A DNA stretch of 64,000 nucleotides from an uncultured Bifidobacterium sp. (GCA_964539515.1 CAZIJO010000003.1:21490-85489); one strand, 5' to 3'; shown: positions 22,395-45,463, counted from the stretch's first letter. Notes: a model not told the origin generated them from the letters alone. A program made the numbers and translations.

Positions 22395-22508
22395 CAAAGT
22401 CCAAGAACTGAAGTCGGAAGTCTGACGCCCAAAGTCTAAAGTCAATTGTCTGCCGTGGCGTGGTCAGGTTTGGGACTTTAGGCTTCAGACTTTAGCCTTT
22501 AGCCTTTA
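22395..22508. repeat. heptamer-periodic inverted repeat (AAAGTC / GACTTT)
   Basis: caaagtc caagaac tgaagtc ggaagtc tgacgcc caaagtc taaagtc versus gacttta ggcttca gacttta gccttta gccttta. Confidence 0.75.
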
Positions 22509-25073: not shown

Positions 25074-25108
25074 GTCCCTGACCTATGAAAGGAATCAATC
25101 AAGTGCAA

Positions 25109-26107: not shown

Positions 26108-26141
26108 ACGCCTCGCGCACCACCGCCAGAGCCCAAAACCC

Positions 26142-27155: not shown

Positions 27156-27157
27156 CC

Positions 27158-27982: not shown

Positions 27983-27992
27983 GCCCGCAACC

Positions 27993-28826
27993 ATGACGCT
28001 CGTGAACTCCAAACGGCACCCGGTCAAAGCGGCGAACGACTCGCGCCAGCCGGACCGGCTGTTGCGCTACTTCGATGCCGTCGCGGAAAAATCCGGCCAC
28101 CTGCTGAGCAAGGCGGTGAAGACGTTCGAGTCCGCTGGCGAACTCTATGGCCTCCCGCGTTTTATTTGGGCCGGGCCAGCGGGTGGTCATGACACGTTTC
28201 GCCTTGGCATTTTCGCCACGTTGAATGGCGATGAGCCGGAGGGCGCGTTTGCCCTGACGCGATTCATCGCGGGATTGGAACAAGCGCCCGAACTGGCGCG
28301 GGGCTATGCTTTCTCGATTTATCCGCTCTGCAACCCCACGGGCTTCGAGGACAACACCCGCCTCTCCCGTGCCGGCGCTGCGTTGAACCGTTTGTTCTGG
28401 ACCGAATCCGACGCGCCCGAAGTCCGCTTTCTCGAATCGGAAATCTGGATGCAGGCGTTTCACGGCATCCTCAACCTGCGCAGTGACGCGGAAACTGCGG
28501 GCGTTTATGGCTTCGCCTCGGGTGGGATCATCTCGCAGGCCTTGCTGCAACCCGCGCTTCAGGCGGCGGGAACCTTTCTCCCGCGCAATCGTCAACGCGA
28601 GATCGACGGCATCCCCGCCCGGCGCGGGATGGTGTATGCGGACATCTACAACGCCGCGCGCGGAGCGTTGCGCGCCGTGCCTGGCCTGGAGAATCCGCCG
28701 TTTGAAATTACCCTGGCCACACCGCGCGCGGCCGCGGTGCATCTGCAAGTCGAGGCGCTGAATGCGGCGTTGCTTGCCATCCTGTCCGAATTCCGCTCAT
28801 TACAGGCCTATGCCCAGAACATTTGA
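27993..28826 (+). CDS. M14-family paralog with degenerate active site
   Basis: Co-linear with paralog 1, but LNGDE (H>N), ALNR (D>A), LRSD (H>R), TLATP (E>A); ends AYAQNI. Confidence 0.82.
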   Translation: MTLVNSKRHPVKAANDSRQPDRLLRYFDAVAEKSGHLLSKAVKTFESAGELYGLPRFIWAGPAGGHDTFRLGIFATLNGDEPEGAFALTRFIAGLEQAPELARGYAFSIYPLCNPTGFEDNTRLSRAGAALNRLFWTESDAPEVRFLESEIWMQAFHGILNLRSDAETAGVYGFASGGIISQALLQPALQAAGTFLPRNRQREIDGIPARRGMVYADIYNAARGALRAVPGLENPPFEITLATPRAAAVHLQVEALNAALLAILSEFRSLQAYAQNI

Positions 28827-28846
28827 ACCACGACCAAGGTGAACCC

Positions 28847-29671
28847 ATGAAAACCACTGCGCTTGCCCCCGCCATCCGTGCCGGATTCAACCTGCGCGAG
28901 CGTCCCACGCTGGCCGATCTGTTGGCGCCCCTGGATCAACTCGCTGCCAAGTCGTCCAATCTGCTTGCCCGGCCCCTTGGGCAGTTTGAGCGCGATGGCC
29001 ACAGTTACGCGATGCCACGCTACATTTTCGTCGGCCCGCAAGGCGGGGATGTGCCGATTCCCGTCGGCATTTTCGCCGGCATCTATGGGGATGAACCGGA
29101 AGGAACACGCGCATTGGTGAAGTTCGCCCAATTGCTCGAAGCGCATCCCGAACTTGCCGCCGGGTATGTCCTGTTCCTCTATCCGGCTTGCAATCCCACC
29201 GGGCTCGCGGCGGGCACGGCGTTTTCCAGCCGCGGCAAGGACCTGAATCTTGAACTTGTGAAGATCTCTCACGAACCCGAGGCGCGCTGGTTGCAAAGTG
29301 AACTCGCGTCGCAACACCTGGAAGGCATCATCAAGCTGCACACCAAGGCCGGGAGCAATACCTTCTACGGGCTGGTTCGGGGCGAGACCCTTGCGCGCCA
29401 ACTGCTGGATCCCGCGCTGGCCGCCGCCGCGGAATTGTTGCCGGTGGCGGAGGACTCAGGCATCGAGGCGTTTCGCGCGCGGGATGTTTCCTACGACCAC
29501 TATGAAGGTGGATCGCCGACGGCGCCAGAAGCTCCGACGCGTCCGTTCGAGGTCATTCTCGAAACGCCCGGGCAGGTTCCGGCTTATCTTCGCGAATGGG
29601 CCTTCGTGCTGGCGCTACGTTCCATTCTGACCGAGTACCGGAAATTCCTCGCCTACGCTCCCAACCTTTGA
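28847..29671 (+). CDS. M14-family paralog, partly degenerate
   Basis: IYGDE (H>Y), DLNL (R>L); LHTK and ILETP retained; ends AYAPNL. Confidence 0.82.
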
Positions 29672-31062: not shown

Positions 31063-32049
31063 ATGAAATCAAATCAAAACCTGAAACCCATCCGCAGCGT
31101 CGCTGCGGTGGTGGGTGGTTTTGCCTGGTTCACCGGGGCGGCGTTCGCAGCGCCATTCCTGTACAGCTCGGGTGATCTCGTGCTGGCGTTCCGCCAGACC
31201 GGATCGGCGAGTGATTACGCCGTGAACATCGGCAAGGCTACCAACTATAACAACCTGCCGGGAGGTTCAACCTTCGCGGTTACCAACTTGTCCGTCTCCC
31301 AACTCGGTGCCGCTTTTCCGAGTGTGAACGAATTGAAGTGGTCCGTGGCGGGCGCCATTCGCACGGCGGGCAATCCAACCTATCCCATCCAGACCCTCTG
31401 GGTGAGCCGGCCCCGCGTGGATGCCGGCACGCCCAGCGCGCCCTGGTTGCGGCGCAGCACTTCGACCCAGGGCACCGCCGGCGCGCAGATTGACGCCGTC
31501 GGAGTGCGCGCTGCCAACGGCAGCAGTTTCCTCGCAGCCGGACCCAACAACACTGTGACCGGAGTCGTCTTGCCCGTGGCCAGCGACTTCAATCTCGGTC
31601 AAGTCATTGGCACGTTCGGTAATTATGACAACACGTTTCAGGGAAATGTGGAGAATCTCACCGCCGCTGATTTTGACGGTGCGCCTGAAAACGTTTCCCG
31701 CTCGGACTTGTATGAACTGTTGCCGGGCAACAGCGCGTTAAATCTGCCGGGACGCTTCCTGGGCTTCTTTGAACTGAAGCCCAACGGCGCGTTGACCTTC
31801 ACGGCGGCCTCCACGGTACTGCCGGCGCCGACAATCACCAGCATCACCCGCACCGGCGATGTCACCACCGTCTCCTTCACGACGGTTTCCGGCGGAACGT
31901 ATCGGTTACGGGCTACTAATGCAGCGGGATTGACCACGCCCGTCTCGACCTGGACCACTGGCAATTCCCTTGCGGGCACGGGCGGAGTGTTGTCGCTCAC
32001 GGACACCAATTCCGCCGACATCCGCTTCTTTGCGGTGGATGTGCAATAA
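31063..32049 (+). CDS. secreted Ser/Thr/Gly-rich protein with Verrucomicrobia-type C-terminal Ig-like domain; no Cys or Met after the start
   Basis: Signal peptide ending AFA-A; GDLVLAFR N-terminus; C-terminal PTITSITRTG...YRL...W...TDTN...RFFAV domain. Confidence 0.85.
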   Translation: MKSNQNLKPIRSVAAVVGGFAWFTGAAFAAPFLYSSGDLVLAFRQTGSASDYAVNIGKATNYNNLPGGSTFAVTNLSVSQLGAAFPSVNELKWSVAGAIRTAGNPTYPIQTLWVSRPRVDAGTPSAPWLRRSTSTQGTAGAQIDAVGVRAANGSSFLAAGPNNTVTGVVLPVASDFNLGQVIGTFGNYDNTFQGNVENLTAADFDGAPENVSRSDLYELLPGNSALNLPGRFLGFFELKPNGALTFTAASTVLPAPTITSITRTGDVTTVSFTTVSGGTYRLRATNAAGLTTPVSTWTTGNSLAGTGGVLSLTDTNSADIRFFAVDVQ

Positions 32050-32126
32050 CCTGAACCGAACTAAACAACTGAAAACGGAATTATCCCTATTTGAAATCGA
32101 AAACTTGAACCTTTGAGAGACTGATT

Positions 32127-33203
32127 ATGAAAACGACAAACTTACTGATAATTGCGGCGGGCGCGGTGCTCGCTGTCACCAGCGCGCAGGCGCAGGTGGA
32201 AATCAACATCTCCGGCGCGGTGGCCTTTCGTGATACGTCCTATCGTGCCATCCGGGCGCTCTATGGAGCAAATCTCGCGTCGGAGAATAACCTCACCCCG
32301 CCGCCCTCTTCACTAAAGGTGACGTGGACGGGGCAGATCACGAACTTGTTCGGCAATCAAACTGTCACCATCCGCACGTTCTACAACGGGGCCAACGCCG
32401 GCATCCAGGACCTGGTGCAGAATCGTAACGTCAACTACCTGGCGTCTTCGACCCCGGGAGGCACCTCCACGGTGAATCTCCAGTCGGACCTGGCGTATTC
32501 CTCGGTATTCCAGGCATCCACGCCATATACCTCGCCCGCCCTGGAAGATGTGCGCTTTGGTCTCACGCCGGTCTTTTTCGTCAAGAGCACCAGTGCTCCG
32601 GCGGGATTGACCAACATCACCGTGCAACAATTCCGCACGCTGGCAGCCAACGGTTCCGTTCCCGGTTGGTTTCTGACCGGCAACACCAATGATACCGCAC
32701 CCATCTACTACGTCAGCCGCGACCCGAGTGCTGGTCAGCGGACGATCATCGAACGCGAACAGGGATTCTACGGCAACGCGATCTTCTACAACTGGAACCC
32801 TGCTACGACCCAGTTCGATCCTGATCCCACCGGGCGCACGTCCACGCAGATTCGCGACCTGCTGAACATCTCCGGCCCGGCAGTCAGTTATTTGACCGGA
32901 GTGGACGCGGTGAACGTCAATGGCGGGGCCAATATCCTGGCTTTGAATGGCTTTCGGCCGGTGTTGAATCCTTACAACTCCGTCAGCAACAATCACGCGC
33001 CGGTCATCAACGGCCAATACACGCAGTGGGGCTATGAGCACATCTTCATTCGGACCACCGCATCGGCCAACCTCCGCAACTTCCGTAATGCGCTGATTGC
33101 GAAGATTGATGAGGACCTGCAAACCTCCGCTTACTCAATTCCGCTGAGTCGCGCCCGGGTCGAGCGCTCGGCGCAAGGTGGCCCGGTCTCGCCCCTTGAT
33201 TAA
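32127..33203 (+). CDS. secreted PstS-like (PBP-fold) solute-binding protein; no Cys or Met after the start
   Basis: Signal peptide ending AQA-Q; ISGAVAFR, GANAGIQ, VSRDPSAGQR and YTQWGYEH resemble PBP/PstS-fold motifs. Confidence 0.65.
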   Translation: MKTTNLLIIAAGAVLAVTSAQAQVEINISGAVAFRDTSYRAIRALYGANLASENNLTPPPSSLKVTWTGQITNLFGNQTVTIRTFYNGANAGIQDLVQNRNVNYLASSTPGGTSTVNLQSDLAYSSVFQASTPYTSPALEDVRFGLTPVFFVKSTSAPAGLTNITVQQFRTLAANGSVPGWFLTGNTNDTAPIYYVSRDPSAGQRTIIEREQGFYGNAIFYNWNPATTQFDPDPTGRTSTQIRDLLNISGPAVSYLTGVDAVNVNGGANILALNGFRPVLNPYNSVSNNHAPVINGQYTQWGYEHIFIRTTASANLRNFRNALIAKIDEDLQTSAYSIPLSRARVERSAQGGPVSPLD

Positions 33204-33269
33204 GTAATACTCGTTGCCGCCGGCGCGGGTCCCTGGCCCGCGCCGGCTTCTGCCCGAGCGACCATACGA

Positions 33270-35768
33270 ATGGAGCCATCTTCAAGATTCAATCGAATGC
33301 CGGGTCTGCAAACCGGAGTTCTGATTATGACCGCCCTGCTCATCGCCGCCCGCTTCAGCGGAACAATGGCGCTGGCGCAGTCCACCAATGCGCCGATCGT
33401 TCCCAGCTATCAGGTCGCGCGCTATGAACTCGATAGTCCGGTGCTCACTCCGGCGGACGTGGAACGGTTGACGGCCGACGCAACCGGTGATGCCGTGACC
33501 GTGGCGGAAATCCGGCGCGCCCTGAACCGATTGCAAACCGCCTTGCGCGAGCGCGGCTATCGACAGGCGGCATTGACGTTGCCACAGCAAGCGCTCACCA
33601 ATGGCGTGGTGCGCGTGCGGGTGTGGGAAGGTCCGGCGCCGGGCCAGGCCGCGCCGGCGGCGACCCCGCCGGTGGAACTGCCGGCGTTGGCTGCGCCGGC
33701 CTACGACATCCGCCACTTTGAAATTCACGGCAACACCAAGCTTTCGCCGGAGGCGATCGACCGCATTCTCGGTCCGGCGGCCGGGCCGTCGGCCAATCTT
33801 GATGCGTTGCGCGAAGCGCTGGTGAAACTGCGTGACGCTTACCGCGAGCGCCGCCTGCCGCTGGCCACGGTCACCGTTCCGGAACAATTGCTGACCGATG
33901 GCACGATTGTCATCCAGGTGAACGAGGGTTGGGATCCCGAGGCGGAAGCGCTCGCCAAAGCACAAACCGTGACGCCAACCAATGTTCCAGCCACTCCCCC
34001 CGAGCGCACGTTTGAGGTGCGTCGTTATGAAGTGCTGGGCAACACGTTGCTCGCCCCGGCTGCAATTGATGCCATCGTCACCAATGGCGTTGGCACGAAC
34101 GTCACGTTCACGCAGGTGCGGAAGGTTCTCGGGGATCTGCAACTCGCCTATCGCGAGCGCGGTTTTGCCAGCGCCAGCGTAGCGCTGCCGCCCCAGCAAC
34201 TCACCAACGCCACCATCAAAATCCAAGTCACCGAAGGCGTGCTCGTGGATGCGCGCGTGACCGGCAATCGCTATTTCAGTTCCAACAACGTCATGCGCGC
34301 TTTGCCGTCGGTGGCCAACGCGCTCATCTGGAAGGACGAGGTAATCAACAGTCGCGTGTTGCAGCGTGAACTGGACCTCGCGAATCAGAACCGGGACCGG
34401 CAGATTTATCCGGTCCTCAATCCCGGCCCCGACCCGGGCACGACCGCCTTGGATTTGCGGGTGAAGGACCGCTTGCCCTTGCACGGGCGATTGGAGCTCA
34501 ACAATCAATCGACCCCCGGCACGCCGGACTGGCGGCTCAACGCCTCTGCTAATTACAACAACCTCTGGCAACGGGAGCACGCTGTTGGCATTTTCTATGG
34601 ATTCACCCCCGAGGAGTTCAAAGTCCCGCAGCCAGACCCGGATTACTTTTTCAACCGGCCGCTCGTGGCGAACTTCGGCGCTTATTACCGCATTCCGTTT
34701 GGCGAGCCGCAATCGGTGCAGGAGATCATCAGCGGCAACCGCAACTTTGGCTTTGACGAGGCGACCAAGCAGTTCCGCCTGCCGCCACCGGGCAGCCGGC
34801 CGGACCTGACATTCTCCGTCAGTGGTTCTTCCAGCGACACTGGTGTCAATTACGGCCCGACCACCGTGGTTTCCCAGACGCCGTTGCTGACGATTCTCTC
34901 CCGGGACAGCGGCCAGGATTTGAACTTAAATCAAAGCGCTGGCTACAACCTCAATCTGCCGCGCGCTTTGAGTGACACCCGCCGCCTCAACTTCTCCCTC
35001 GGCATGGACTGGAAGCGCAGCGAGAAGGAGAGTTACAACACGAACAACTTTCTGATCATTACCGTCATCACCAATTCCCAAGGGTCGCAGATTATTACCA
35101 GCGAGGTGTCGTCGCCACAGCCCCCGCGCAAGACCGAGGTCAACTATCTGCCGCTTAACTTCGGGTTCAGTTTCGCGGATGCAAGTCCGAAAGCCACCTT
35201 GTTTGCCAGCGTGGTCTTGAGCGCCAATTTTCTGGGCAACGACTCTGATTTTGTTGCCGCCTCGTACACCCCTGAAGCGCAGGCGGAATATGCGAAGGCC
35301 GTCTTTGCGCTGAGCTACGATCGCAAAGTGTTCAACGACTGGTCGCTGTTGTGGCGACTCAATGGGCAGGCGGCGACGGGACCGTTGATCAACAACGAAC
35401 AATTTGCCGTCGGCGGCATCAACAGCGTGCGGGGCTATTATGAGGGCGATGAGTACGGAGACGTCGGTTGGTTTACCAGTGCGGAGCTGCGCACGCCATA
35501 CCTTGCCACTGAAGCCGGAGTGGTGGATGGCTTCACGCCGGTTTGGTTGCGGGGTTCGATATTTCTCGACGCCGGCCAGCCGATCTATCTCGACGATGTT
35601 CCTTGGGTCGCGCCGGACCGCTTTCTCTGGAGCACGGGTTTTGGCCTCTCAGCAAACATCAACAACCACTTTGACGCGAAAGTTGCAGTCGGTTGGCCGC
35701 TGGCCGACTCCGCCAACACCCAGGCTTATCAACCGCGCGTGCTCTTCTCATTGGGAGGACAGTTTTGA
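33270..35768 (+). CDS. ShlB/FhaC/HecB-family two-partner-secretion outer-membrane transporter (TpsB)
   Basis: Repeated POTRA motifs (YRERG...LPxQ.LT.G...I.V.EG), PGPDPGTT, conserved VRGY loop; ends LGGQF. Confidence 0.92.
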   Translation: MEPSSRFNRMPGLQTGVLIMTALLIAARFSGTMALAQSTNAPIVPSYQVARYELDSPVLTPADVERLTADATGDAVTVAEIRRALNRLQTALRERGYRQAALTLPQQALTNGVVRVRVWEGPAPGQAAPAATPPVELPALAAPAYDIRHFEIHGNTKLSPEAIDRILGPAAGPSANLDALREALVKLRDAYRERRLPLATVTVPEQLLTDGTIVIQVNEGWDPEAEALAKAQTVTPTNVPATPPERTFEVRRYEVLGNTLLAPAAIDAIVTNGVGTNVTFTQVRKVLGDLQLAYRERGFASASVALPPQQLTNATIKIQVTEGVLVDARVTGNRYFSSNNVMRALPSVANALIWKDEVINSRVLQRELDLANQNRDRQIYPVLNPGPDPGTTALDLRVKDRLPLHGRLELNNQSTPGTPDWRLNASANYNNLWQREHAVGIFYGFTPEEFKVPQPDPDYFFNRPLVANFGAYYRIPFGEPQSVQEIISGNRNFGFDEATKQFRLPPPGSRPDLTFSVSGSSSDTGVNYGPTTVVSQTPLLTILSRDSGQDLNLNQSAGYNLNLPRALSDTRRLNFSLGMDWKRSEKESYNTNNFLIITVITNSQGSQIITSEVSSPQPPRKTEVNYLPLNFGFSFADASPKATLFASVVLSANFLGNDSDFVAASYTPEAQAEYAKAVFALSYDRKVFNDWSLLWRLNGQAATGPLINNEQFAVGGINSVRGYYEGDEYGDVGWFTSAELRTPYLATEAGVVDGFTPVWLRGSIFLDAGQPIYLDDVPWVAPDRFLWSTGFGLSANINNHFDAKVAVGWPLADSANTQAYQPRVLFSLGGQF

Positions 35769-38700
35769 ATGAAGACTATTGAGCCAAAAAATTTGAAGGA
35801 CGCTCGCCCTCACCCCGTCCCTCTCCCTCGGGGAGAGGGAGGGCCAATCAGCGTCAACGAAAGCTCCGGTCGTCTTGGTTGCATCCGCCGCCAAATAATT
35901 CGTCAAGGTGGGTCTCATCAGCAAACTGGTGATGTTTCAAATGGCAAGACGCGGCGAGAATTTCTCCCTCTCCTGGGGGAGAGGGCCGGGGTAAGGGCGG
36001 GTGTTGTCACAAATCTCATACGAGTCTTCTCGGTTACGGTGGCGTTCCTGATCACCACAAACGTGTTGGCCAACCCGAATGGTCTCAGCGTTCAGAGCGG
36101 CAATGCCAGCGTCACTGTCAACGGCAACCAATACCACATCACGGCGTCGCACAATGCCATCCTCAACTGGCAGTCCTTCAACATCGCTGCGGGCGAAACC
36201 ACCCGTTTCATTCAACCCTCGGCATCCTCCGTTGTTTGGAATCGCATCCACGACGCCAGTCCATCGCAAATTTACGGCAATCTTGCCGCCAACGGGGTAG
36301 TGGTGTTGATGAACCAGAACGGCTTTTACTTCGGGCCGAATTCGTTCGTGAGCGCGGCGGGGCTGATTGTTTCCACCGCGCCGTTTGTGCCGGCGGAAAG
36401 TGGCGGCGGATTGTTCTGGCAATTCACCGGTCCAGCACCTGGGGCAAGCATCATCAACTACGGTCAGTTTAGCGTGGGGCAGGGCGGCTCAGCGTTTCTG
36501 ATTGCCGAAACCATCGAGAATCACGGTAGTATCACCGCGCCCGGCGGCAGCATCGGCCTGATCGCCGGACAGGAAATCTTGCTGAGTGAACGGCCCGATG
36601 GGCGCGGCTTGAGCGCTTCGGTCACGCTGCCCACGGGGGCGGTCAACAACTCCGGCGATCTGATTGCGGATGCCGGCACGATTGCCCTGAACGCGCGTGT
36701 GGTGAACCAGCATGGATTGGTGCAGGCCAACTCGATTCGCGAGCGCAACGGCATCATCGAATTGATTGCCTCGGATTCGCTCACCCTCGGGCAAGACTCC
36801 ATTGTTTCTGCCAGTGGAGATTCGGTTGGTGTGAGCGCCGGCGGCGCGATTGTCATCAAGTCCGCCGGCACATTCGCGGACGAGACTGGTTCTCAGATTG
36901 AAGTCCGGGGTGGGTCGCTGGGCGGTGACGGAGGCTTCGCGGAAGTCTCCGCGCCGCTCATGGATTCCATCGAGTCGCAAATTGATGGCCGTGCGGCTGT
37001 CGGTTATCGCGGCGGACGATTGCTGATTGATCCGCAGGACATCGTGATCGGTTTCAGCGGTGGCACCCTTGGTTCGGGCACGGTAGGAGCGAATGATCCG
37101 CCCGTCCCCGGCACGCTCAACCTCGACGTGAACTCGTCGTTCCTGGGCTTCTCTCAAATTATACTGCAAGCCACGCGCAACATCACCCTGGCATCGGGGG
37201 TCACCTGGGATCTCGTCGCCAGTACCGGCCTCAGCGAACCCGGCAGCCTCTTGAAACTTGAGGCCGGCAACAACATCACGCTTTCCAGCGGCGCGAGCAT
37301 TCTCGCCGGTGAGAACTGGTCGGTGACTTTGCAGGCCGGGCGTGACTTTTCACTGGCGGACTCAGTGATTGCCGGCACCGGCAACATTCTGTTCTCGGGG
37401 ACAGGTTCGTTGCAGGCGCAAAATGGAAACATCAGTTTGCTGGCGGGCAACAACCTCAGCGTGGGCAGCGGCCACGTGCGGACAATTGGCGGCGGCCGCA
37501 TCAGTGCCCATGCGGTGGGCGGCAGCATCAACACCGGCACGAAGGCGAACGGTTTTATCTTTGTGCCCACCGGTTCGGGCTACAACGTGAGCGCCGACCT
37601 CGGCGGCATCAGCACGGCCAGCGGTGGCGATGTGTCGCTGACGGCCGGATTGGATGTGTTGAGCTATCTTCCGATCGCGGGCGGGGTGCAAACTGACGCC
37701 GGCAGCGGCGCTTTCGGTGCGGCCCCTGGCAACGTGACCATTACTGCCGGTCGGGATGTTGGCGGGCATTTTGTCGTGCGCAATGGTGTGGGCAGTATCA
37801 CTGCCGGCCGCAACGCCGGCCTCGCCACGCGTCTGCTTGCGCTGAGTCTGGTGAGCGGTGGCTGGACGGTCAACGCCGCCAACGACATTCTGCTGCAGGA
37901 GGTGCGCAATCCGAACGGGGTGTTCAACAATCTCGGATCGAGCACCTCGCCCAATCGGCATCGCTTCGACTACGCCGCCAATGCCTACACGATCTTGAAC
38001 GGCGGTCACTCCGTGCAATTGCGCGGGACGGCGCTGCCGCGTTATCTCGACGTCTTTTCGCAAGGCATTCCGGCGATTTATCCCGGGCTGCTTGAAATCA
38101 CCGCCGGTGCGGGCGGTGTGGTCCTTGGCAACGATGTCATTCTGTTTCCCGCGCCCAACGGCAACCTCAGCATCGCCACCACGGACGGCGGTTCGCTCTT
38201 TGGCACGCGCGCCGGCGATCTCACCCAGCTGGTCTTTTCCGACAGTGGCAAGACGCAGTATCGGGCATTCGGTGATTTCGGGATCGCGGATCGCTCGGGC
38301 AACCTGCTGCACCTGAACGACCCGGTGCCGGTCACACTGGACATTGCGGGCGACATGGACGGCATTCTGCTGGGCGTGCCCAAACGCGCGGAGATCAGCA
38401 TTGGCGGCAACATGGTCAACAGCCGGTTCGACGGGCAGAATCTTCGCGCCACGGATGAAACCCGCATCACGGTTGCGGGCAACATCATCAATCGAAACGA
38501 ATTCACGACGGTCGCCAGTCCGCAGCCGAATTTCCGGTTGTTCGATCCGCTGCTTGATTTGATTTATCCGCCGCTGACCGGTGGCGCTGCCGGTGTTCAA
38601 AACCAGTTCATCTACAATCCGACGACTGGTGAGCTGACGTTCCAGGGCCGCATGACGGGCGAACAGTTGCAGGCGTTGCTGAATCTGACCGTGCGGGCCT

Positions 38701-40025
38701 TCGATGCCGATGGGATTCCGTTGTATCAACCAAACGGTGAACCGGTCACCGTGACGGCGGAATTCGCGAGTGCCGCCGTGCTTCAGCAACTTTACAACAA
38801 CAGCCAGGACGTGCCGCTCAACCCCGACACCGGTTATCGTATCGGCGGCGGTGGCAGATTCACCCTCCGGGCCAACAACCTCGACCTGGGCGCGACGGTT
38901 GGCATCGTGTCCCAGGGCCCGCGCGCCAATGCCCGACTGGCAAACCTTTTCACGGAGGGCGCGGACATCAATGTATTCCTGACCGGCAACCTCGACATGT
39001 TTTCCACCAAGATTGCGTCGCTGAATGGCGGTGAGATCAATGTATATGCGGACGGCCATGTCAGCGTCGGTTCGCGCACCTTCACGACGAGTGGCCAGGC
39101 GGCCCGCGGCATTTTTACGGTGGACGAGAGCGACATCACCGTCATCGCGCGTGGCGACATCAACGTGAACGGCTCGCGCATTGCGGCCTACGACGGCGGC
39201 CATGTGCTGGTGCGGTCGCTGGAAGGGGATGTGGACGCGGGCACGGGCGGGGGAGGCGCGGCGACCGTGGAGAAGATTTACGTGGACCCGGTCACCCGGG
39301 CCATTCAGACTTACGCACCGACGATACCCGGCAGCGGCATTCTGGCGACCACCTTTCCGCCATCGCAGGATTCTGCATTTCCCCGTTCGCTCAACACTGT
39401 GGGGGACATTGTCGTCGAAACGCCCCAAGGCAACATCATCGCGAGTTCGGGCGGCATTGTGCAGATCCCGCTCAACGGCGTGGGCAGCAGCCTCGGCACG
39501 GTCACGCTGCGCGCGGGAACGCAGGATGAGCGCGGCAATGTGATTTATCGCGGCAACATTGACGCGAGCGGTTCGGGCGTCATTGGCAGCACGGTGAAGT
39601 TGGAAGCGAGTGGCGACATCAAGGGGTTGGTCTTTGCGCGGGACAACCTGGACATTGAGGCCAATCAGAGCGTGAACGTAACCGCCCTGGCCGTGGGCAG
39701 CGCCAACGTCAGCGCCGGTGACACCATCTCGGGAACGATCATTGGCGTCGGCAGTGTCAACGCCAGCGGGTCGAGCGTGGATGCGTCGCTGCTGTCCCAG
39801 AACGTGACCGCCAGCGGCGACGTGACTTCTTCGCAGGTTGGCTTTGCCCAGGCCAACGTGGCGGCAACCACCAGCCAGGGTTTGCAGTCGGACGACAGCG
39901 CGAAAGAAGCTGCCGCCGGTGAAAAGCAGGACGAGGAAGACGAGTTGAAGAAGAATCGTCCCGGCCCGCGTATCGCCAAAACCACCGGCCGCGTCACGGT
40001 GATTCTGCCCGAGAAAAAATCCTGA
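35769..40025 (+). CDS. filamentous-haemagglutinin-like exoprotein (TpsA)
   Basis: ANPNG after the signal peptide; TPS domain ILNWQSFNI...NRI...SQIYG.L.ANG.V.LMNQNG; Gly/Ser/Asn-rich beta-helix repeats; starts 1 nt after the tpsB stop. Confidence 0.92.
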   Translation: MKTIEPKNLKDARPHPVPLPRGEGGPISVNESSGRLGCIRRQIIRQGGSHQQTGDVSNGKTRREFLPLLGERAGVRAGVVTNLIRVFSVTVAFLITTNVLANPNGLSVQSGNASVTVNGNQYHITASHNAILNWQSFNIAAGETTRFIQPSASSVVWNRIHDASPSQIYGNLAANGVVVLMNQNGFYFGPNSFVSAAGLIVSTAPFVPAESGGGLFWQFTGPAPGASIINYGQFSVGQGGSAFLIAETIENHGSITAPGGSIGLIAGQEILLSERPDGRGLSASVTLPTGAVNNSGDLIADAGTIALNARVVNQHGLVQANSIRERNGIIELIASDSLTLGQDSIVSASGDSVGVSAGGAIVIKSAGTFADETGSQIEVRGGSLGGDGGFAEVSAPLMDSIESQIDGRAAVGYRGGRLLIDPQDIVIGFSGGTLGSGTVGANDPPVPGTLNLDVNSSFLGFSQIILQATRNITLASGVTWDLVASTGLSEPGSLLKLEAGNNITLSSGASILAGENWSVTLQAGRDFSLADSVIAGTGNILFSGTGSLQAQNGNISLLAGNNLSVGSGHVRTIGGGRISAHAVGGSINTGTKANGFIFVPTGSGYNVSADLGGISTASGGDVSLTAGLDVLSYLPIAGGVQTDAGSGAFGAAPGNVTITAGRDVGGHFVVRNGVGSITAGRNAGLATRLLALSLVSGGWTVNAANDILLQEVRNPNGVFNNLGSSTSPNRHRFDYAANAYTILNGGHSVQLRGTALPRYLDVFSQGIPAIYPGLLEITAGAGGVVLGNDVILFPAPNGNLSIATTDGGSLFGTRAGDLTQLVFSDSGKTQYRAFGDFGIADRSGNLLHLNDPVPVTLDIAGDMDGILLGVPKRAEISIGGNMVNSRFDGQNLRATDETRITVAGNIINRNEFTTVASPQPNFRLFDPLLDLIYPPLTGGAAGVQNQFIYNPTTGELTFQGRMTGEQLQALLNLTVRAFDADGIPLYQPNGEPVTVTAEFASAAVLQQLYNNSQDVPLNPDTGYRIGGGGRFTLRANNLDLGATVGIVSQGPRANARLANLFTEGADINVFLTGNLDMFSTKIASLNGGEINVYADGHVSVGSRTFTTSGQAARGIFTVDESDITVIARGDINVNGSRIAAYDGGHVLVRSLEGDVDAGTGGGGAATVEKIYVDPVTRAIQTYAPTIPGSGILATTFPPSQDSAFPRSLNTVGDIVVETPQGNIIASSGGIVQIPLNGVGSSLGTVTLRAGTQDERGNVIYRGNIDASGSGVIGSTVKLEASGDIKGLVFARDNLDIEANQSVNVTALAVGSANVSAGDTISGTIIGVGSVNASGSSVDASLLSQNVTASGDVTSSQVGFAQANVAATTSQGLQSDDSAKEAAAGEKQDEEDELKKNRPGPRIAKTTGRVTVILPEKKS
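35805..35999. mobile_element. 195-bp MITE/REP-like element inserted in frame in the tpsA 5' end
   Basis: 37-nt inverted units cgccctcaccccgtccctctccctcggggagagggag and its near reverse complement ending ...cggggtaagggcg; length is exactly 65 codons. Confidence 0.8.
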
Positions 40026-40056
40026 GCCACTACCGCAATCCATTTCCAAAACCTCT

Positions 40057-40869
40057 ATGCTAACCGAAACCCTCCTCACTCCCATGTTCGCCTCGGGCGC
40101 GCTCCAGTTCGCGTTCGAAAAAGCCACGCTCGAAGGCAAGCTCACCATCGGCGCGCTCGTCATCGTGTCGCTGTTCAGTTGGTCGGTCATTATTACCAAA
40201 ATCCTCCAACTCTGGCGCGCGAGCCGGGTGTCGAAAAGGTTCTTTGACGCCTATCACGAGACGCGCGACCCGCTGGAGTTGCAGCGCAAGGGGCTGAAGT
40301 TCGATGGCGCGCCGGCTTACGAATTGTACGAGGCCGGGCAAAAGGAACTTCAGTTCCAAATCACGAAACATCCCGTGGTCGTGAAGGGCGAGGCCAGGAT
40401 TACCCAGGCCAGTTTTGATTCGGTGCGGGTCTCACTGGAAGAAGCCGCGATGCACGAGGCGCTCGCGCTGGAGAAGGGGATGATTGTGCTGTCCACGGCC
40501 GTGGCGGGCGGGCCGTTCATTGGTTTGCTCGGCACTGTCTGGGGCGTCATGGAGACTTTCTCCGGCATCGCGAAGGCAAATTCCGCCAGCCTCACTGCTA
40601 TGGCACCCGGTGTCGCGGGCGCGTTGATTGCCACGGTCATTGGCCTGCTGGTCGCGATTCCCGCGATGTTCGCCTACAACTTCATGGTGACGCGGATTCG
40701 CGCGTTCACACAGGAACTGGACGCGTTTGCCATCCGGTTCGCCACGCAGATCGAACACACCTACGTGGACGCGCGGCCCATCGGCGAGGAGGTTTCCGAA
40801 GCCATCACCCGCGCCATTCGCAAGGAGGGCTATGATGCCAACACCGTCATTCAGGCGGCGCATATATGA
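40057..40869 (+). CDS. exbB: MotA/TolQ/ExbB proton channel protein
   Basis: AGGPFIGLLGTVWGVMETF, APGVAGALIATVIGLLVAIPA. Confidence 0.93.
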   Translation: MLTETLLTPMFASGALQFAFEKATLEGKLTIGALVIVSLFSWSVIITKILQLWRASRVSKRFFDAYHETRDPLELQRKGLKFDGAPAYELYEAGQKELQFQITKHPVVVKGEARITQASFDSVRVSLEEAAMHEALALEKGMIVLSTAVAGGPFIGLLGTVWGVMETFSGIAKANSASLTAMAPGVAGALIATVIGLLVAIPAMFAYNFMVTRIRAFTQELDAFAIRFATQIEHTYVDARPIGEEVSEAITRAIRKEGYDANTVIQAAHI

Positions 40870-41279
40870 GAAAGTGCTCCAAGAGCTTGCATCAGTCGCT
40901 GACGGAGCTGAATATCACTCCGTTGCTCGATCTCGCGTTCGTGTTGCTGGTGATTTTCATCATCACCACAACCCCCATTGTGAACGATCTGGATTTGAAC
41001 CTGCCGACGGCATCGAAGAAGCAAAAGGATTCACCGCCCAAAGCGAACTACGTGACGGTGGACGCGGCGGGCACGATTCACCTGAACAAGCAGCAGGTCA
41101 CACTCGAAGGATTGCTCTCGGAACTCATCCAGTTGCGCGTGGACGACCCGGATTTGAGTGTCATTGTCCGCGGTGACAGCAAGACGAAGTACCGGCACAT
41201 CGTGACCGTGATGGATGCCCTGCAACAGGCCAACGTCGTGAAAGTGGATCTGGCCACCGAGCCGAACGGAAAGAACTGA
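40866..41279 (+). CDS. exbD: biopolymer transporter ExbD
   Basis: ELNITPLLDLAFVLLVIFIITTP, IVRGD, VMDAL. Confidence 0.93.
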   Translation: MRKCSKSLHQSLTELNITPLLDLAFVLLVIFIITTTPIVNDLDLNLPTASKKQKDSPPKANYVTVDAAGTIHLNKQQVTLEGLLSELIQLRVDDPDLSVIVRGDSKTKYRHIVTVMDALQQANVVKVDLATEPNGKN

Positions 41280-41283
41280 GCAA

Positions 41284-41967
41284 ATGGCGGATCGTCGAAA
41301 AGAGCAACGCGCGTCGCGATTGAGTGTCGTGATTTCCCTGGGGTTCCACGCCGTCATCATTGGTGGCTTGGTGTTCATCGCGGCCCGCGAGGGTATGCTT
41401 GGCAAGGAACTCAAAAAGATTGCCGTGACGATGGTGCCAAAGGAAAAGCCGCCGGAGGAAAAGCCCAAGGAAAAAGAACCGGAACCCAAGCCGCCCGTGG
41501 AAGAACCAAAACCGGAGCAAACCAAGCCGGTGGAAACCGCGCCCCAAATTGCCAAGCCCACCGCCACACCCCCGCCGGCCGCCTCCGTGGCCGTCCCGGC
41601 CGCCGCTCCCGCGCCGACTGCTTTGCCGGCGTTCGCTTTCGAGGGCGGCAAGCAAGTTGAGACTACGGCCGACCCTGATTTGATCTACAAAGGATTTGTC
41701 GAATACACGCTGCGCTCCCGCTGGAGCCGGCCCGAGGGAATTGATGACGCCAAATTCGTCGCCGAGGTGGAATTGGCGTTAGACAGCTCAGGACGCGTGC
41801 AGGGGACAACCTGGAAGAAAGGTTCCGGAAATTCGGCTTGGGATGCCTCCGTGAGGAGGGTGTTGGCAGCGACGGCCAACATCGGCCGTCCGCCGCCGAA
41901 GGGCTTTCCCGCGCAAGTGCTCGTCCGGTTTGATGTGCAGACCGTTGAGGAGATCGGAATCGAATGA
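41284..41967 (+). CDS. tonB: TonB/TolA-like energy transducer
   Basis: N-terminal TM with SLGFH (SxxxH-type motif), Pro/Lys/Glu-rich spacer, C-terminal W.RP...G.V...SG...WD.SV domain. Confidence 0.85.
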   Translation: MADRRKEQRASRLSVVISLGFHAVIIGGLVFIAAREGMLGKELKKIAVTMVPKEKPPEEKPKEKEPEPKPPVEEPKPEQTKPVETAPQIAKPTATPPPAASVAVPAAAPAPTALPAFAFEGGKQVETTADPDLIYKGFVEYTLRSRWSRPEGIDDAKFVAEVELALDSSGRVQGTTWKKGSGNSAWDASVRRVLAATANIGRPPPKGFPAQVLVRFDVQTVEEIGIE

Positions 41968-42404
41968 AAAAGCGGCGCGCGTTCAGAAAAGTTCACCGTG
42001 AAGGCCACGGCTCGCTGAACGAGTTGAACATCACGCCGCTGCTCGACTTGGTGTTCGTGCTGCTGGTGATTTTCATCATCACGACCCCGCAGTTGACCAA
42101 CAGCCTCGAGATCAATCTGCCCTCCGGCAAACCGCCGCCACCGAAAGCTGACGCGCCCAAGCCGAAGGTCAACCGTATCATCGTGGACGATACCGGGCAG
42201 GCATTCTTTAATCGCGAACCGTTAACGATCCCCGCGCTAAAAACAAAGTTGCAGCAGATGAAAACCGCCGATCCGGAGTTGGGCGTGGTCGTCGAGGGTT
42301 CGGAGGAAGTGGATTATCAAAACATGATCAACGTGCTGGATGTGTTGCAGCAATTGGACATCACCAAGGTTGGGCTTGCGACGGAGGCCGCATCGAATCC
42401 GTAA
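41964..42404 (+). CDS. exbD: second ExbD/TolR
   Basis: ELNITPLLDLVFVLLVIFIITTP, VLDVLQQLDITKVGL. Confidence 0.92.
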   Translation: MKKRRAFRKVHREGHGSLNELNITPLLDLVFVLLVIFIITTPQLTNSLEINLPSGKPPPPKADAPKPKVNRIIVDDTGQAFFNREPLTIPALKTKLQQMKTADPELGVVVEGSEEVDYQNMINVLDVLQQLDITKVGLATEAASNP

Positions 42405-42484: not shown

Positions 42485-42499
42485 GTGCGCCGCACTCGG

Positions 42500-43327
42500 A
42501 TGGAACAAAAGAAATTCAATGTCATGCCCGGCTTCGGTCTGACGATGGGCTTTACGCTCTTCTATTTGAGCGCGATTGTGCTCATTCCCATCGGCGCGAT
42601 CGTGCTCAAGACGCTTGGCATTCCGTGGAGCGAGTTCTGGCGGTTGGCGACGACCGACCGGGCGCTGGCAGCCTACAAACTCACCTTCGGAGCCTCGTTG
42701 GTCGCGGCGTTTGCGAACGCCGTTTTCGGCACGTTGCTTGCCTGGGTGCTGACGCGGTACGAATTTCCCGGACGCCGGTTCATCGATGCCATGGTGGATT
42801 TTCCCTTCGCCCTGCCAACCGCGGTGGCGGGGCTGACCCTGGCCAGCCTTTTCGCGGCCAACGGCTGGCTGGGAAAATACCTGGTGCCGTTGGGAGTCAA
42901 GGGCGCTTTCACCCCGCTGGGGGTCATCATTGCGTTGACCTTCGTCGGAATGCCGTTTGTCGTGCGCACGCTCCAACCGGTGATTGAGAACTTCGAACGC
43001 GAGGTCGAGGAATCGGCCGCGACGCTGGGGGCCGGGCGGCTGCGAACGTTTTTGACCGTGATTGCCCCGTCGCTGCTGCCATCCATCATCACGGGTTTCG
43101 CGCTGGCGTTTGCCCGGGCAATTGGCGAATACGGGTCCATCGTTTTTATTTCCAGCCACCACCGGTACGTGGACGAGATTGTTCCGTTCCTGATTGTCGA
43201 ACACCTGGATCAATTCGAGCATGCCGGGGCCATGACGCTGGCGGTGGTGCTATTGATCTTCTCGTTTGCCTTGCTCGGAGTCATCAATGTGCTCGAACAG
43301 TGGGCCAACAAGTTTGTGAAGGGATGA
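42500..43327 (+). CDS. cysT: sulfate ABC transporter permease CysT
   Basis: PGFGLTMG, DAMVDFPFALPTAVAG, PFVVRTLQPV, EESAATLGA, RAIGEYGS. Confidence 0.95.
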   Translation: MEQKKFNVMPGFGLTMGFTLFYLSAIVLIPIGAIVLKTLGIPWSEFWRLATTDRALAAYKLTFGASLVAAFANAVFGTLLAWVLTRYEFPGRRFIDAMVDFPFALPTAVAGLTLASLFAANGWLGKYLVPLGVKGAFTPLGVIIALTFVGMPFVVRTLQPVIENFEREVEESAATLGAGRLRTFLTVIAPSLLPSIITGFALAFARAIGEYGSIVFISSHHRYVDEIVPFLIVEHLDQFEHAGAMTLAVVLLIFSFALLGVINVLEQWANKFVKG

Positions 43328-43427: not shown

Positions 43428-44363
43428 ATGGCTGGCATTACCAAAAAACAATGGGCCGGAGGGCGCAAGAAATCGCAACGCGGGACGGAAGAATCCCCGT
43501 TTGCGAAATGGACGCTCATTGCCCTGGCGATGCTGTTTTGCCTGGTTTTTCTGCTCCTGCCGCTGATCAACGTGTTTGCGCAGGCGTTTGCCAAAGGTTG
43601 GACGGCTTACTGGTCCGCGCTGACGCATCCGGATTCCTGGTCGGCGATCAAACTCACCCTGCTGGTGGCGGCGATCAGCGTGCCGTTGAATGTGCTGTTC
43701 GGGCTCGCGGCCGCCTGGGCGATTGCCAAGTTCGAGTTTCGCGGCAAGGCGCTGCTCATCACCTTGATCGATCTGCCCTTCTCGGTTTCGCCGGTGGTGG
43801 CGGGCTTGATGTTCATCGTGTTGTTTGGTCTGCAGGGTTTTTTTGGCGAATGGCTGAACGATCATGACTTCAAAGTCATTTTTGCGGTACCCGGGATTGT
43901 GCTGGCGACGGTGTTCATCACCTTCCCGTTCGTGGCCCGGGAGTTGATCCCCGTGATGCAGGCGACCGGCACGGACCAGGAGCAGGCGGCCCTCACCCTG
44001 GGCGCCAACGGCTGGCAGACTTTCTGGCACGTCACGCTGCCGTCCGTAAAGTGGGGGCTGATCTACGGGATTATTTTGTGCAACGCCCGCGCGATGGGCG
44101 AATTCGGCGCCGTGTCGGTGGTGAGCGGTCACATCACCGGGCAGACGGATACAATGCCTTTGCGGGTGGAGAAACTTTACAACGAGTATCAGGGGCCGGC
44201 GGCTTTCGCCGTCGCCAGTCTCCTGGCGATGCTGGCGCTGGTAACATTGGCTATCAAAACCTTCCTGGAATGGAAGCAGCACCGGGAATTTGAACTCGCC
44301 CAGCAGGCGACGCTGGGGGAGACCGGCGACACGGTTTTCCTGGCGCAACCCAAATCTGAATGA
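43428..44363 (+). CDS. cysW: sulfate ABC transporter permease CysW
   Basis: LIDLPFSVSPVVAG, FPFVARELIP, ARAMGEFGAVSVVSG, TMPLRVE. Confidence 0.95.
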   Translation: MAGITKKQWAGGRKKSQRGTEESPFAKWTLIALAMLFCLVFLLLPLINVFAQAFAKGWTAYWSALTHPDSWSAIKLTLLVAAISVPLNVLFGLAAAWAIAKFEFRGKALLITLIDLPFSVSPVVAGLMFIVLFGLQGFFGEWLNDHDFKVIFAVPGIVLATVFITFPFVARELIPVMQATGTDQEQAALTLGANGWQTFWHVTLPSVKWGLIYGIILCNARAMGEFGAVSVVSGHITGQTDTMPLRVEKLYNEYQGPAAFAVASLLAMLALVTLAIKTFLEWKQHREFELAQQATLGETGDTVFLAQPKSE

Positions 44364-45463
44364 GCATCGAACTGAAAGGCGTCACCAAGAAATTCGGCGA
44401 GGTCACCGCCGTGAATGATGTCAATTTCTCCGTCAACGACGGGGAATTGATGGCCTTGCTGGGGCCCAGCGGCGGCGGCAAGACGACGGTGCTGCGGATG
44501 ATTGCGGGCCTCGAAGTGCCGACCGAAGGGGACATCTTCGTCCGGGGCGAGCGGGTGAACGATGTGCCGGTGCAGAAGCGCAACATCGGGTTCGTCTTTC
44601 AGAGTTACGCGCTGTTCAAGAGCATGACGGTGTTCAAAAACATTGCCTTCGGTCTGAAGATAAAAAAGTGGAAGCCGGCGGAGGCCGAGGCCCGGGTGAT
44701 GGAATTATTGCAACTTTTTGGTCTGGCCGGCCTGGAGAATCGTTATCCGCACCAGCTATCCGGCGGGCAGCGGCAACGCGTGGCCATCGCCCGCTCCCTG
44801 GCGCCCAAGCCCGGCGTGCTGTTGCTGGATGAACCGTTTGGCGCCGTGGACGCAAAGATCCGCCAGGAGTTGCGCGAGTGGCTCGTGACCCTGCACCACG
44901 AGCTGAATGTGACTACGATTTTCGTCACGCACGACCAGGAGGAAGCGATGGAAGTTTCGAATCGCATCGTGATTTTCTCGAAGGGAAATCTCGAACAGAT
45001 CGGGACGCCGCGCGAAGTCTATGAACAACCGGCGAACGAATTCGTGGCGCGCTTTGTAGGTGTAATGAACGTCCTCGACACCGAGGTGTCGGGGGGCGTC
45101 GCCCGGATCAATGAAATGGCGTTTCCGGCCGGTGGTCACGCCGACGGCATGCGCCTGCGGATAGGTTTCCGGCCGTACGCGGTGCAGGTTTCCAATGATC
45201 TGGCCCTGCTTCCCTATCGCGCCGTATTGCGGCACACTTTCTTCCTCGGAATCCTGCTACGGCTCGAATTGGAACTGGCCTCCGGCCTGATCATTCGTAG
45301 CCGTATGACAAAGGAAGAATATGCCCAGCTGGGCCTGGTTGACGGTCGGGAGGTGTCGTTTCAAATCAAAAGTTACCGTGTGCTGGCGAGCGAAGATGCC
45401 CGGCTGGCGCCGGAGTTGGAGGCGACGTACCAAGCCCCGCCAACCATCGGCGAGCACATTTGA
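44360..45463 (+). CDS. cysA: sulfate ABC transporter ATP-binding protein CysA
   Basis: GPSGGGKT Walker A, FVFQSYALF, LSGGQRQRVA, LLLDEPFGA, THDQEEA; TOBE-like tail. Confidence 0.95.
   Translation: MSIELKGVTKKFGEVTAVNDVNFSVNDGELMALLGPSGGGKTTVLRMIAGLEVPTEGDIFVRGERVNDVPVQKRNIGFVFQSYALFKSMTVFKNIAFGLKIKKWKPAEAEARVMELLQLFGLAGLENRYPHQLSGGQRQRVAIARSLAPKPGVLLLDEPFGAVDAKIRQELREWLVTLHHELNVTTIFVTHDQEEAMEVSNRIVIFSKGNLEQIGTPREVYEQPANEFVARFVGVMNVLDTEVSGGVARINEMAFPAGGHADGMRLRIGFRPYAVQVSNDLALLPYRAVLRHTFFLGILLRLELELASGLIIRSRMTKEEYAQLGLVDGREVSFQIKSYRVLASEDARLAPELEATYQAPPTIGEHI

Follow-up and report, generated by a model that had tools for sequence, protein, structure and literature searches.

The window analyzed here is a 64,000-nucleotide stretch of DNA recorded under an uncultured Bifidobacterium sp. 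(GCA_964539515.1, CAZIJO010000003.1:21490-85489; positions are counted from its first letter). It contains a block of eight closely spaced genes on the + strand (31063-42404), in which two secreted proteins, which we call U345 and U358, precede a two-partner secretion (TPS) pair, TpsB and TpsA, and an ExbB-ExbD-TonB-ExbD motor follows it. Our main finding is that a conserved operon unites a type V secretion pair and a TonB motor, with no TonB-dependent receptor in the locus. We tentatively read the block, with slightly less than even confidence, as a surface scavenging device that is induced by sulfur limitation and coupled to the motor; in it, TpsB and TpsA would replace the plugged receptor and the PstS-fold protein U358 would bind the ligand. 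The genes and motifs of the block are as follows.

31063..32049, + strand: U345, secreted protein of 328 amino acids, the first conserved gene of the block; no Pfam or NCBIfam match
32127..33203, + strand: U358, secreted PstS-fold protein of 358 amino acids, of the type II periplasmic-binding-protein kind; no Pfam or NCBIfam match
33270..35768, + strand: TpsB, 832 amino acids; Pfam POTRA_2 (three stretches), POTRA, ShlB, and Omp85
35769..40025, + strand: TpsA, 1418 amino acids; Pfam TPS (E-value 3e-24) and NCBIfam adhes_NPXG
36075..36779, + strand: TPS secretion domain of TpsA (amino acids 103-337), with the motifs ANPNGL and NQNGF
39819..39974, + strand: variable, acidic-then-basic low-complexity linker of TpsA (amino acids approximately 1351-1402)
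39987..40010, + strand: C-terminal strand motif of TpsA, G-R-V-T-V-I-L-P (amino acids 1407-1414)
40057..40869, + strand: proton-channel subunit of the ExbB/TolQ type; Pfam MotA_ExbB (E-value 2e-29)
40866..41279, + strand: ExbD/TolR paralog 1 (ExbD1); Pfam ExbD (E-value 6e-29)
41284..41967, + strand: force transducer of the TonB/TolA type; Pfam TonB_2 (E-value 5e-11)
41964..42404, + strand: ExbD/TolR paralog 2 (ExbD2); Pfam ExbD (E-value 3e-27)

Every gene named in an earlier note on this DNA was found where that note had placed it, on the + strand, and the spacing between tpsA and the ExbB gene is 31 nt, as it had claimed. The four-gene motor with two ExbD paralogs that it described is borne out by Pfam, which identifies ExbB, ExbD1, TonB_2, and ExbD2. 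U345, a further conserved member of the block, was absent from its gene list. The note had also held that the window encodes no TonB-dependent receptor; we find none among the window open reading frames (ORFs) of at least 600 amino acids, nor do the existing Pfam annotations for eight related loci include one. The arrangement is not due to chance: across 34 non-redundant contigs of related Verrucomicrobiota, each locus that could be assessed has this gene order.

Conservation of the Linkage between the Secretion Pair and the Motor

Genomic contexts were drawn from protein-indexed assemblies and from 77 loci found in a scan of species-representative genomes, and were compared with the window proteins by tblastn. 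Homologs of TpsB are numerous, and all the named ones are from Verrucomicrobiota. We define as the main clade 34 non-redundant Verrucomicrobiota loci (loci carry our own L numbers below), and we call a locus assessable for a gene when enough flanking sequence is present. TpsA was found in all 31 assessable main-clade loci, ExbB in 25 of 25, ExbD1 in 24 of 24, and TonB and ExbD2 each in 22 of 22. The accessory proteins are nearly as constant (U358 and U345: 28 of 29 loci each), and in 22 of the 23 loci where this could be assessed, the 8 kb upstream of TpsB contain a porin homolog; in the remaining one, L017, the porin is present at a greater distance. Wherever the 34 loci could be assessed for it, the motor follows TpsA within about 10-60 nt.

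In a more divergent clade of Verrucomicrobiota, whose TpsB is 37-45% identical, the U358-like gene is retained along with TpsB and TpsA. Two of its loci, L040 and L084, carry the full ExbB-ExbD-TonB-ExbD set among unrelated neighbors, with no sulfur genes: the neighborhood of L040 consists of aromatic amino-acid genes, and a histidine kinase gene lies downstream in L084. The tie between motor and TPS pair is therefore independent of shared sulfur regulation. In L038, an OmpR-type response regulator follows TpsA, and then comes a TonB gene as the sole motor gene. L082 and L083 (42% identical), P0528, and L085 encode TpsB and TpsA but no motor within 10 kb; L082 and L083 additionally have U345-like and U358-like genes. 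Co-occurrence of the motor with the TPS pair, which the earlier note had proposed as a check on its idea, thus holds for ExbB, ExbD, and TonB in all assessable main-clade loci and reaches into sister clades. Among the more distant proteobacterial TpsB relatives (27-35% identical), the motor was left unscored, as their TpsA genes (more than 3300 amino acids) fill the 10-kb flank.

These comparisons suggest a nested picture. The outermost layer would be a four-gene core (U345-like, PstS-like, TpsB, and TpsA with its tail); within it lies a subclade that appears to have acquired a dedicated motor, and within that a subclade apparently specialized for sulfur limitation.

Two observations stand apart from this survey. 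L006 (CAZQNQ010000009.1) carries a full block of the Verrucomicrobiota type, 59-94% identical to that of the window, in a record labeled uncultured Bifidobacterium sp., which is probably a binning or labeling error. There is also a second kind of TPS/motor neighborhood (L048:9881-16279; L074:402-11629; also L078, L079, and L080), carried by a Verrucomicrobia assembly and by Rubrivivax-like Betaproteobacteria. Here, a classical two-POTRA TpsB adjoins, or lies within 8 kb of, a DUF2341-LamG-ExbB fusion, and the neighborhood also holds one or two ExbD genes, a TonB-like gene, and a Porin_5 gene.

The TpsB/TpsA Pair

TpsB has the features expected of a TPS transporter: an Omp85/ShlB barrel, POTRA domains, and the loop-6 motif VRGY. 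Both V720-R-G-Y723 and F765-x-D767 are invariant among 25 homologs. The protein has four POTRA domains, compared with two in FhaC. The first POTRA strand begins only about 10 residues after the predicted signal cleavage site (ALA/QS); because this leaves no room for it, TpsB is predicted from inspection of its sequence to lack the FhaC-type plug helix H1.

The start of tpsA is the base right after the tpsB stop codon. Its product, which scores 65.6 bits against the adhes_NPXG model (cut-off 29.1), consists of the TPS domain and a predicted β-helix of roughly 1000 residues. Conservation among 31 homologs stays at 0.65-0.80 per 50-residue block over amino acids 101-1350. Identity to homologs in the best high-scoring segment pair is 60-75% for TpsA versus 47-64% for TpsB from the same loci. 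A passenger more conserved than its own TpsB is unusual for a TPS system.

Conservation falls to 0.53 in the block 1351-1400, which corresponds to the charged linker of about 50 residues, and the C-terminus follows. In the window, GRVTVILP ends four residues before the TpsA stop. In the family, the tail T-x-G-R-V-T-V-I-L-P is nearly invariant and lies two to seven residues from the stop; it is kept in every complete homolog compared except L017, with substitutions of F or L for I, S for G, and I for V. We also searched the C-terminal half of TpsA against 1.84 billion representative proteins, which gave 272 clusters at an E-value of 1e-30 or less. Among the 150 best cluster representatives, 88 have the motif in their last 20 residues, and the remaining members include proteins with short C-terminal extensions or near variants of the motif. 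The named members are all Verrucomicrobiota, labeled merely "filamentous hemagglutinin family." The tail resembles the short strands to which the C-domains of TonB and TolA bind by β-augmentation.

The 5′ end of the tpsA ORF is peculiar. The first 85 or so codons (35769-36020) are unconserved in most homologs; within them lie two palindromic arms of a GGGAGAGGG-type repeat element, which read PLPRGEGG and LPLLGERAGVRA in translation. For one of these arms (35964-35998), the match to the Rfam family whalefall-1 stays below threshold (E-value 0.13). The same in-frame insertion occurs in TpsA of L005 and L006, and a partly similar one in L042. TpsA may have its true start codon elsewhere, or it may have an extended leader.

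Another peculiarity concerns TpsB in sister clades, where an AraC-type cupin and HTH_18 domain are fused in frame to its N-terminus (L040:9002-11917; L082/L083:7007-9853; L084:6674-9928; also L033, L034, and L039). The order is cupin and helix-turn-helix, a hydrophobic segment resembling a signal peptide with an AXA-type site, the POTRA domains, and the barrel, and independent annotators have called the fusion as a single protein of 948-1084 amino acids. This would be either a cytoplasmic DNA-binding domain tethered to an outer-membrane transporter or a single chain that is later cleaved. We know of no precedent for such a fusion.

The Motor

ExbD1 and ExbD2 are 43% identical, and both have the transmembrane Asp. 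The TonB protein has an S-x3-H transmembrane motif, a spacer rich in Pro, Lys, and Glu, and a TonB_2 C-terminal domain. Against solved structures, the ExbB protein scores about equally with TolQ (84 bits) and ExbB (78 bits), and TonB has no sequence match in the PDB. The TonB spacer gives a weak low-complexity match to GltJ, which is the sole sequence tie that we found to the Agl-Glt machinery. We considered whether the genes are a housekeeping Tol-Pal set. We reject this reading because tolB and pal are absent and the motor travels with the TPS pair: neither TolB nor Pal is present in the gene lists of the related loci inspected, and in the window cysTWA adjoins the motor downstream. The motor probably acts on this TPS module.

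The Accessory Proteins U358 and U345

The earlier note had called U358 PstS-like, a call that is upheld at the level of the fold and has no family-level match behind it. The AlphaFold2 model of U358 (pLDDT 86.9, pTM 0.81) matches PstS (4lat and 4exl) in Foldseek with E-values of 5e-13 to 4e-12 and target TM scores of 0.79-0.83, and the top 20 matches are all phosphate-binding proteins. Searched as a profile against the PDB, U358 matches PstS1 weakly (E-value 0.002) over the final 60 residues. U358 matches no Pfam family, PBP_like_2 included, and no NCBIfam family, and there are no pst genes in the window. It belongs to an orphan family of 236 homologs, of which those with source names are Verrucomicrobiota, and it is about 100 amino acids longer than PstS.

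PstS-type proteins hold their anion at loops of helix N-termini. In the U358 family, three such loops are invariant: S29-G-A-V-A-F-R35, N87-G-A-x-A-G92, and R198-D-x-x-A-G-Q-R205. The first reads SGAVAFR in the sulfur clade versus (S/T)GSTAFR in clades outside sulfur loci (L084:4541-5743, L082:5060-6370, L033, L034, and L039-L041), and the latter form is nearer to canonical PstS. This difference fits a changed ligand, and U358 is probably a PstS-fold protein whose ligand has changed. In a weak hhalign profile alignment with E. coli PstS, Ser108 of U358 stands opposite Asp56, the phosphate-discriminating residue (probability 1.8%, a lead only). The signal peptide of U358 is of the simple Sec kind and lacks a lipobox, and placement of the protein at the surface was an assumption of the earlier note.

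The 66-nt gap between U358 and tpsB contains a GC-rich perfect hairpin (GCCGGCGCGGG...CCCGCGCCGGC) at 33216-33250. It could be an attenuator within the operon or an mRNA stabilizer that favors the binding protein over the transporter.

U345 has a Sec signal peptide and 171 homologs, the few with source names being Verrucomicrobiota. Its AlphaFold2 model (pLDDT 85.6) has no PDB fold match at an E-value of 0.001 or less, and a profile sequence search of the PDB gave no match. The sole part with any fold match, a weak one, is a C-terminal FN3/Ig-like domain; the N-terminal domain is unmatched among solved structures. In a sister clade (L082:4127-4993; L083:1367-2254 and 5081-5968), U345-like proteins carry a PEP-CTERM sorting signal at their C-terminus, a hint of a cell-surface role for the family; the U345 of the window has no such signal.

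The Link to Sulfur

The block sits inside a sulfate-assimilation cluster, with CysK upstream and CysTWA directly downstream. The neighboring genes are these.

22506..22973, - strand: Rrf2-family transcription regulator, candidate regulator of the sulfur cluster; Pfam Rrf2 (E-value 3e-39)
23340..25073, + strand: anion-selective porin, Porin_O_P; Pfam PF07396 (E-value 5e-32)
25085..26107, + strand: Sbp1, sulfate/thiosulfate-type binding protein; Pfam SBP_bac_11
within ORF 25890..27155, + strand: Sbp2, paralog of Sbp1; Pfam SBP_bac_11
27083..29671, + strand: three tandem AstE_AspA-like paralogs (zinc deacylase type); Pfam PF24827
29596..30663, + strand: CysK cysteine synthase; NCBIfam TIGR01139 cysK (444.5 bits, cut-off 350.95)
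42485..43327, + strand: CysT, sulfate ATP-binding cassette (ABC) transporter; Pfam BPD_transp_1
43428..44363, + strand: CysW, sulfate ABC transporter; Pfam BPD_transp_1
44360..45463, + strand: CysA, sulfate ABC transporter; Pfam ABC_tran and TOBE

The two Sbp genes (25085..27155) match SBP_bac_11 with E-values of 1e-36 and 7e-31, and the region holds a direct repeat of 194 nt (72% identity). Between Sbp2 and CysK, the AstE_AspA-like genes form a three-copy repeat with spacings of 832 and 860 nt. An Rrf2 gene flanks the cluster in L004 too; homologous CysTWA genes lie beside the block in L002, L008, L010, L011, L017, and L032; and DUF2292, SrpI-like, cysteine desulfurase, and rhodanese genes join the cluster in other genomes. 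At least one porin or cys gene is present in 27 of the 34 main-clade loci. When 21000-46500 was searched with Rfam for riboswitches that respond to sulfur, nothing scored better than an E-value of 0.1, and a promoter and terminator scan did no better than on shuffled sequence.

Proteins that cells make in bulk when starved of sulfur often contain little Cys and Met. We therefore calculated Cys plus internal Met as a percentage of residues. U345 and U358 of the window have neither Cys nor internal Met (0.00%); TpsB has 0.60%, TpsA 0.45%, and Sbp1 0.59%. Fifteen other window proteins have 2-5%. The main-clade medians (30-38 homologs) are 0.00% for U345, 0.00% for U358, 0.43% for TpsB, 0.53% for TpsA, and 0.22% for the porin. 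In clades outside sulfur loci, U358-like proteins have 1.4-3.6%, and TpsB and TpsA about 1-3%. Because these close relatives contrast with the main clade, a generally low Cys content of exported proteins is controlled for.

The sulfur connection proposed in the earlier note therefore has two independent supports, the embedding in a cys cluster and the Cys/Met depletion of the exported proteins, and it is fairly likely that the module serves sulfur acquisition.

Three further observations can be added here. Homologs of the AstE_AspA-like genes occur alongside sulfur genes in 18 of the 34 related loci. The contrasts in U358 loop 1 and in Cys/Met content may mean that there are versions of the module for different nutrients. 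Finally, a part of the window unrelated to the TPS-motor block (9846-14563) encodes a large Fe-S/molybdopterin-like subunit (1099 amino acids) and then an NrfD-type membrane subunit, a pair that resembles alternative complex III or a polysulfide-reductase-like module.

A Proposed Mechanism and Its Alternatives

In the mechanism that we propose, scarcity of sulfur would switch on the Rrf2-controlled cluster. The plug-less, four-POTRA TpsB would export the TpsA β-helix as a fiber, and the charged C-terminal linker would keep TpsA threaded in the TpsB pore, so that the GRVTVILP strand stays in the periplasm as the C-terminus of HMW1 does in HMW1B. The C-domain of TonB may then β-augment a periplasmic strand of TpsA or TpsB, for which the GRVTVILP tail is the best candidate. 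ExbB, a heterodimer of ExbD1 and ExbD2, and TonB would pull on TpsA/TpsB, causing gating or partial retraction, and TpsB and TpsA would in this way take the part of the plugged 22-strand receptor in classical TonB transport. U358 would bind a sulfur oxyanion or a small organosulfur compound, and U358 and U345 would capture this ligand or pass it towards the periplasm, Sbp, and CysTWA. What we infer is that the motor acts on the TPS pair, where TonB makes contact, that transport runs inward, where U345 and U358 reside, which kind of ligand is bound, and what the C-terminal strand does.

Several points weigh against this proposal. The cluster already has its own anion porin and a full sulfate ABC system, which puts in question the need for energized import of a small anion across the outer membrane. 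U358 has a Sec signal peptide alone and may be purely periplasmic, and TonB-dependent receptors could be encoded elsewhere in the carrier genomes. The motor proteins score slightly higher on the TolQ/TolR/TolA than on the ExbB/ExbD/TonB NCBIfam models, all below cut-off. Type V secretion is regarded as energy-independent, with no energy source powering translocation (PMC5422565). The GRVTVILP tail also occurs in L082/L083, P0528, and L085, which have no motor within 10 kb. Because relatives with no adjacent motor carry it, the tail is not specific evidence for motor coupling; these contexts show that it is older than the link to the motor, and it may be primarily a periplasmic anchor or a POTRA-binding strand. 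As a handle for TonB, we regard it as a possible but rather doubtful candidate.

The most specific form of the proposal is a type Vb system driven by the proton-motive force, in which the TonB/TolA-like transducer would grip and pull on the C-terminal periplasmic strand of a TpsA fiber still threaded through the plug-less, four-POTRA TpsB, and the TpsA tail and TpsB barrel would form a two-protein equivalent of a receptor that imports a sulfur compound captured by the PstS-fold protein. In all these particulars together, we consider it unlikely.

A rather improbable alternative accepts that the motor is coupled to the TPS pair and lets it work outward, in the export, folding, retention, retraction, or release of TpsA. 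U345 and U358 would perhaps be displayed, and the cell would attach to sulfur-rich particles or polymers or harvest from them, with no import through TpsB. The linkage of the TPS pair to the motor is as much evidence for this as for inward scavenging. The conservation of TpsA over its full length, above that of TpsB, fits a mechanical or structural role, and the U345-like proteins of L082/L083 carry PEP-CTERM surface-sorting signals. There is also a parallel in Myxococcus, where a motor of the TolQ/TolR type, which has two TolR-like subunits, works with TonB-C-domain proteins in the Agl-Glt machinery to drive a surface adhesin. However, reconstituted TPS secretion proceeds with no energy input (PMC5422565), and the motorless relatives apparently manage with the same four-gene core. 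The position of the block between a binding protein and porin on one side and an ABC importer on the other points to uptake.

The co-location may instead be merely regulatory, a reading that we find quite unlikely. The motor would be a sulfur-induced Ton set for receptors encoded elsewhere (e.g., for sulfonates or sulfate esters), and the TPS pair an independent surface protein of sulfur starvation. Pseudomonads are known to take up organosulfur compounds in a TonB-dependent manner, and the GRVTVILP motif is not confined to motor-linked loci. Yet TpsA is followed by the motor in an invariant order in every assessable locus of the 34, and L038 keeps the TonB gene alone with TpsA. Shared sulfur regulation cannot explain the pairing, because it persists in the clades of L040 and L084, which have no sulfur genes and have different regulators. 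In addition, the related loci whose genes were inspected contain no receptor.

It is more doubtful still that the system is one of trans-envelope sensing, with TpsA as an extracellular antenna and the motor and TonB relaying a surface event inward for control of the sulfur genes, with no transport; the model for this is cell-surface signaling that depends on TonB. The AraC-type cupin and helix-turn-helix fused to TpsB in sister clades would suit such a role, as would the response regulator between TpsA and TonB in L038. But throughout the sulfur clade, the window included, TpsB begins with a normal signal peptide and is free of regulatory domains, and the cluster already has an Rrf2 regulator. 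The strong sparing of sulfur in U345, U358, TpsA, and TpsB points to structural or binding proteins made in abundance rather than to a low-copy sensor.

That TpsA is a toxin of contact-dependent growth inhibition (CDI) or a haemolysin/cytolysin, to which the motor is irrelevant, is hardly credible, as the earlier note had already held for CDI: only the generic TPS architecture speaks for it, and we reject it because of the nearly invariant, non-polymorphic C-terminus of a TpsA conserved throughout and because of the absence of a toxin domain, a VENN-type boundary, and a small immunity gene, ExbB starting 31 nt after tpsA.

In textbooks, type V secretion is by definition independent of an outside energy supply, and what defines TonB is the plugged barrels that it serves. 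The conserved motor of the block matters because type V translocation is stated to have no energy source (PMC5422565). Is coupling to the proton-motive force possible for a transporter of the Omp85 family? Does TonB have clients beyond the classical receptors? The carrier lineage has a complete genome and many good assemblies, so these questions are directly testable. Searches of the literature on TPS with ExbD or TonB, on a TonB box in TpsA, and on sulfur starvation in Verrucomicrobia found no description of the module. If our proposal is true, motor coupling would be a categorically new mechanism, the block would be the first energized two-partner system, and its client would be the first nutrient-import client of TonB other than a plugged 22-strand barrel. 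The block also marks what is probably a response to sulfur limitation in Verrucomicrobiota that abound in freshwater and soil; part of this response are two protein families with no assigned function that are wholly free of sulfur amino acids.

Comparison with Known Systems

U358 shares with PstS/DING-type proteins the type II fold and conserved loops at helix N-termini. It differs from them in its approximately 100 extra residues, in the absence of pstCAB, and in a genomic context of sulfur rather than phosphate.

The motor invites comparison with three systems. In Tol-Pal, tolQ-tolR-tolA are followed by tolB, pal, and cpoB, whereas in the block the motor is followed by cysTWA. The likeness to Agl-Glt, which is mentioned in PMC12204202, lies in a TolQ/ExbB-type motor, two different TolR/ExbD-type subunits, TonB-C-domain proteins, and an outer-membrane platform that handles a surface adhesin in place of a nutrient receptor. 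Agl-Glt has unrelated outer-membrane components, no TPS pair, and no nutrient operon. With classical Ton systems, the block shares the ExbB/TolQ channel, the essential Asp of ExbD, the S-x3-H anchor and proline-rich spacer of TonB, and a context of nutrient limitation. Classical systems serve a plugged 22-strand receptor; the block has none in the locus and has two distinct ExbD paralogs. The candidate TonB-binding strand would be at the C-terminus of a secreted fiber in the block, in contrast to the N-terminus of a barrel protein in the classical case.

As a secretion pair, TpsB and TpsA resemble FhaC and FhaB in the TPS domain with NPNL/NPNG-type motifs, the ShlB-type Omp85 barrel with VRGY, the POTRA_2 domains, and the tpsB-tpsA gene order. 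FhaC has two POTRAs and a plug helix, whereas TpsB has four POTRAs and apparently no room for the helix. Secretion of filamentous hemagglutinin is energy-independent, and the passenger of the block is unusually conserved. The nearest topological analogue is HMW1/HMW1B, in which the C-terminus of HMW1 is held in the periplasm through the HMW1B pore (PMC3297439); we propose the same cell-attached topology for the GRVTVILP tail. HMW1 is locked by a disulfide-bonded loop, while here Cys is absent altogether and the TpsA tail is a short conserved β-strand after a charged linker. Unlike the block, HMW1 has no associated motor or nutrient context.

The nearest functional analogue is HxuCBA of Haemophilus influenzae, in which a TPS pair (HxuA as TpsA, HxuB as TpsB) works with the TonB-dependent receptor HxuC on haem-haemopexin (PMC5422565, PMC4873976). 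The two share a TPS pair in nutrient acquisition, TonB-dependent uptake in the same operon, and a TpsA that acts on the nutrient source at the cell surface, features that for the block are part of our proposal. The gene content is reversed: HxuCBA has the plugged receptor in the operon and the Ton motor elsewhere, whereas the block has the motor in the operon and no receptor. The nutrient of HxuCBA is haem; the context of the block is sulfur, with a PstS-fold protein and U345 in addition.

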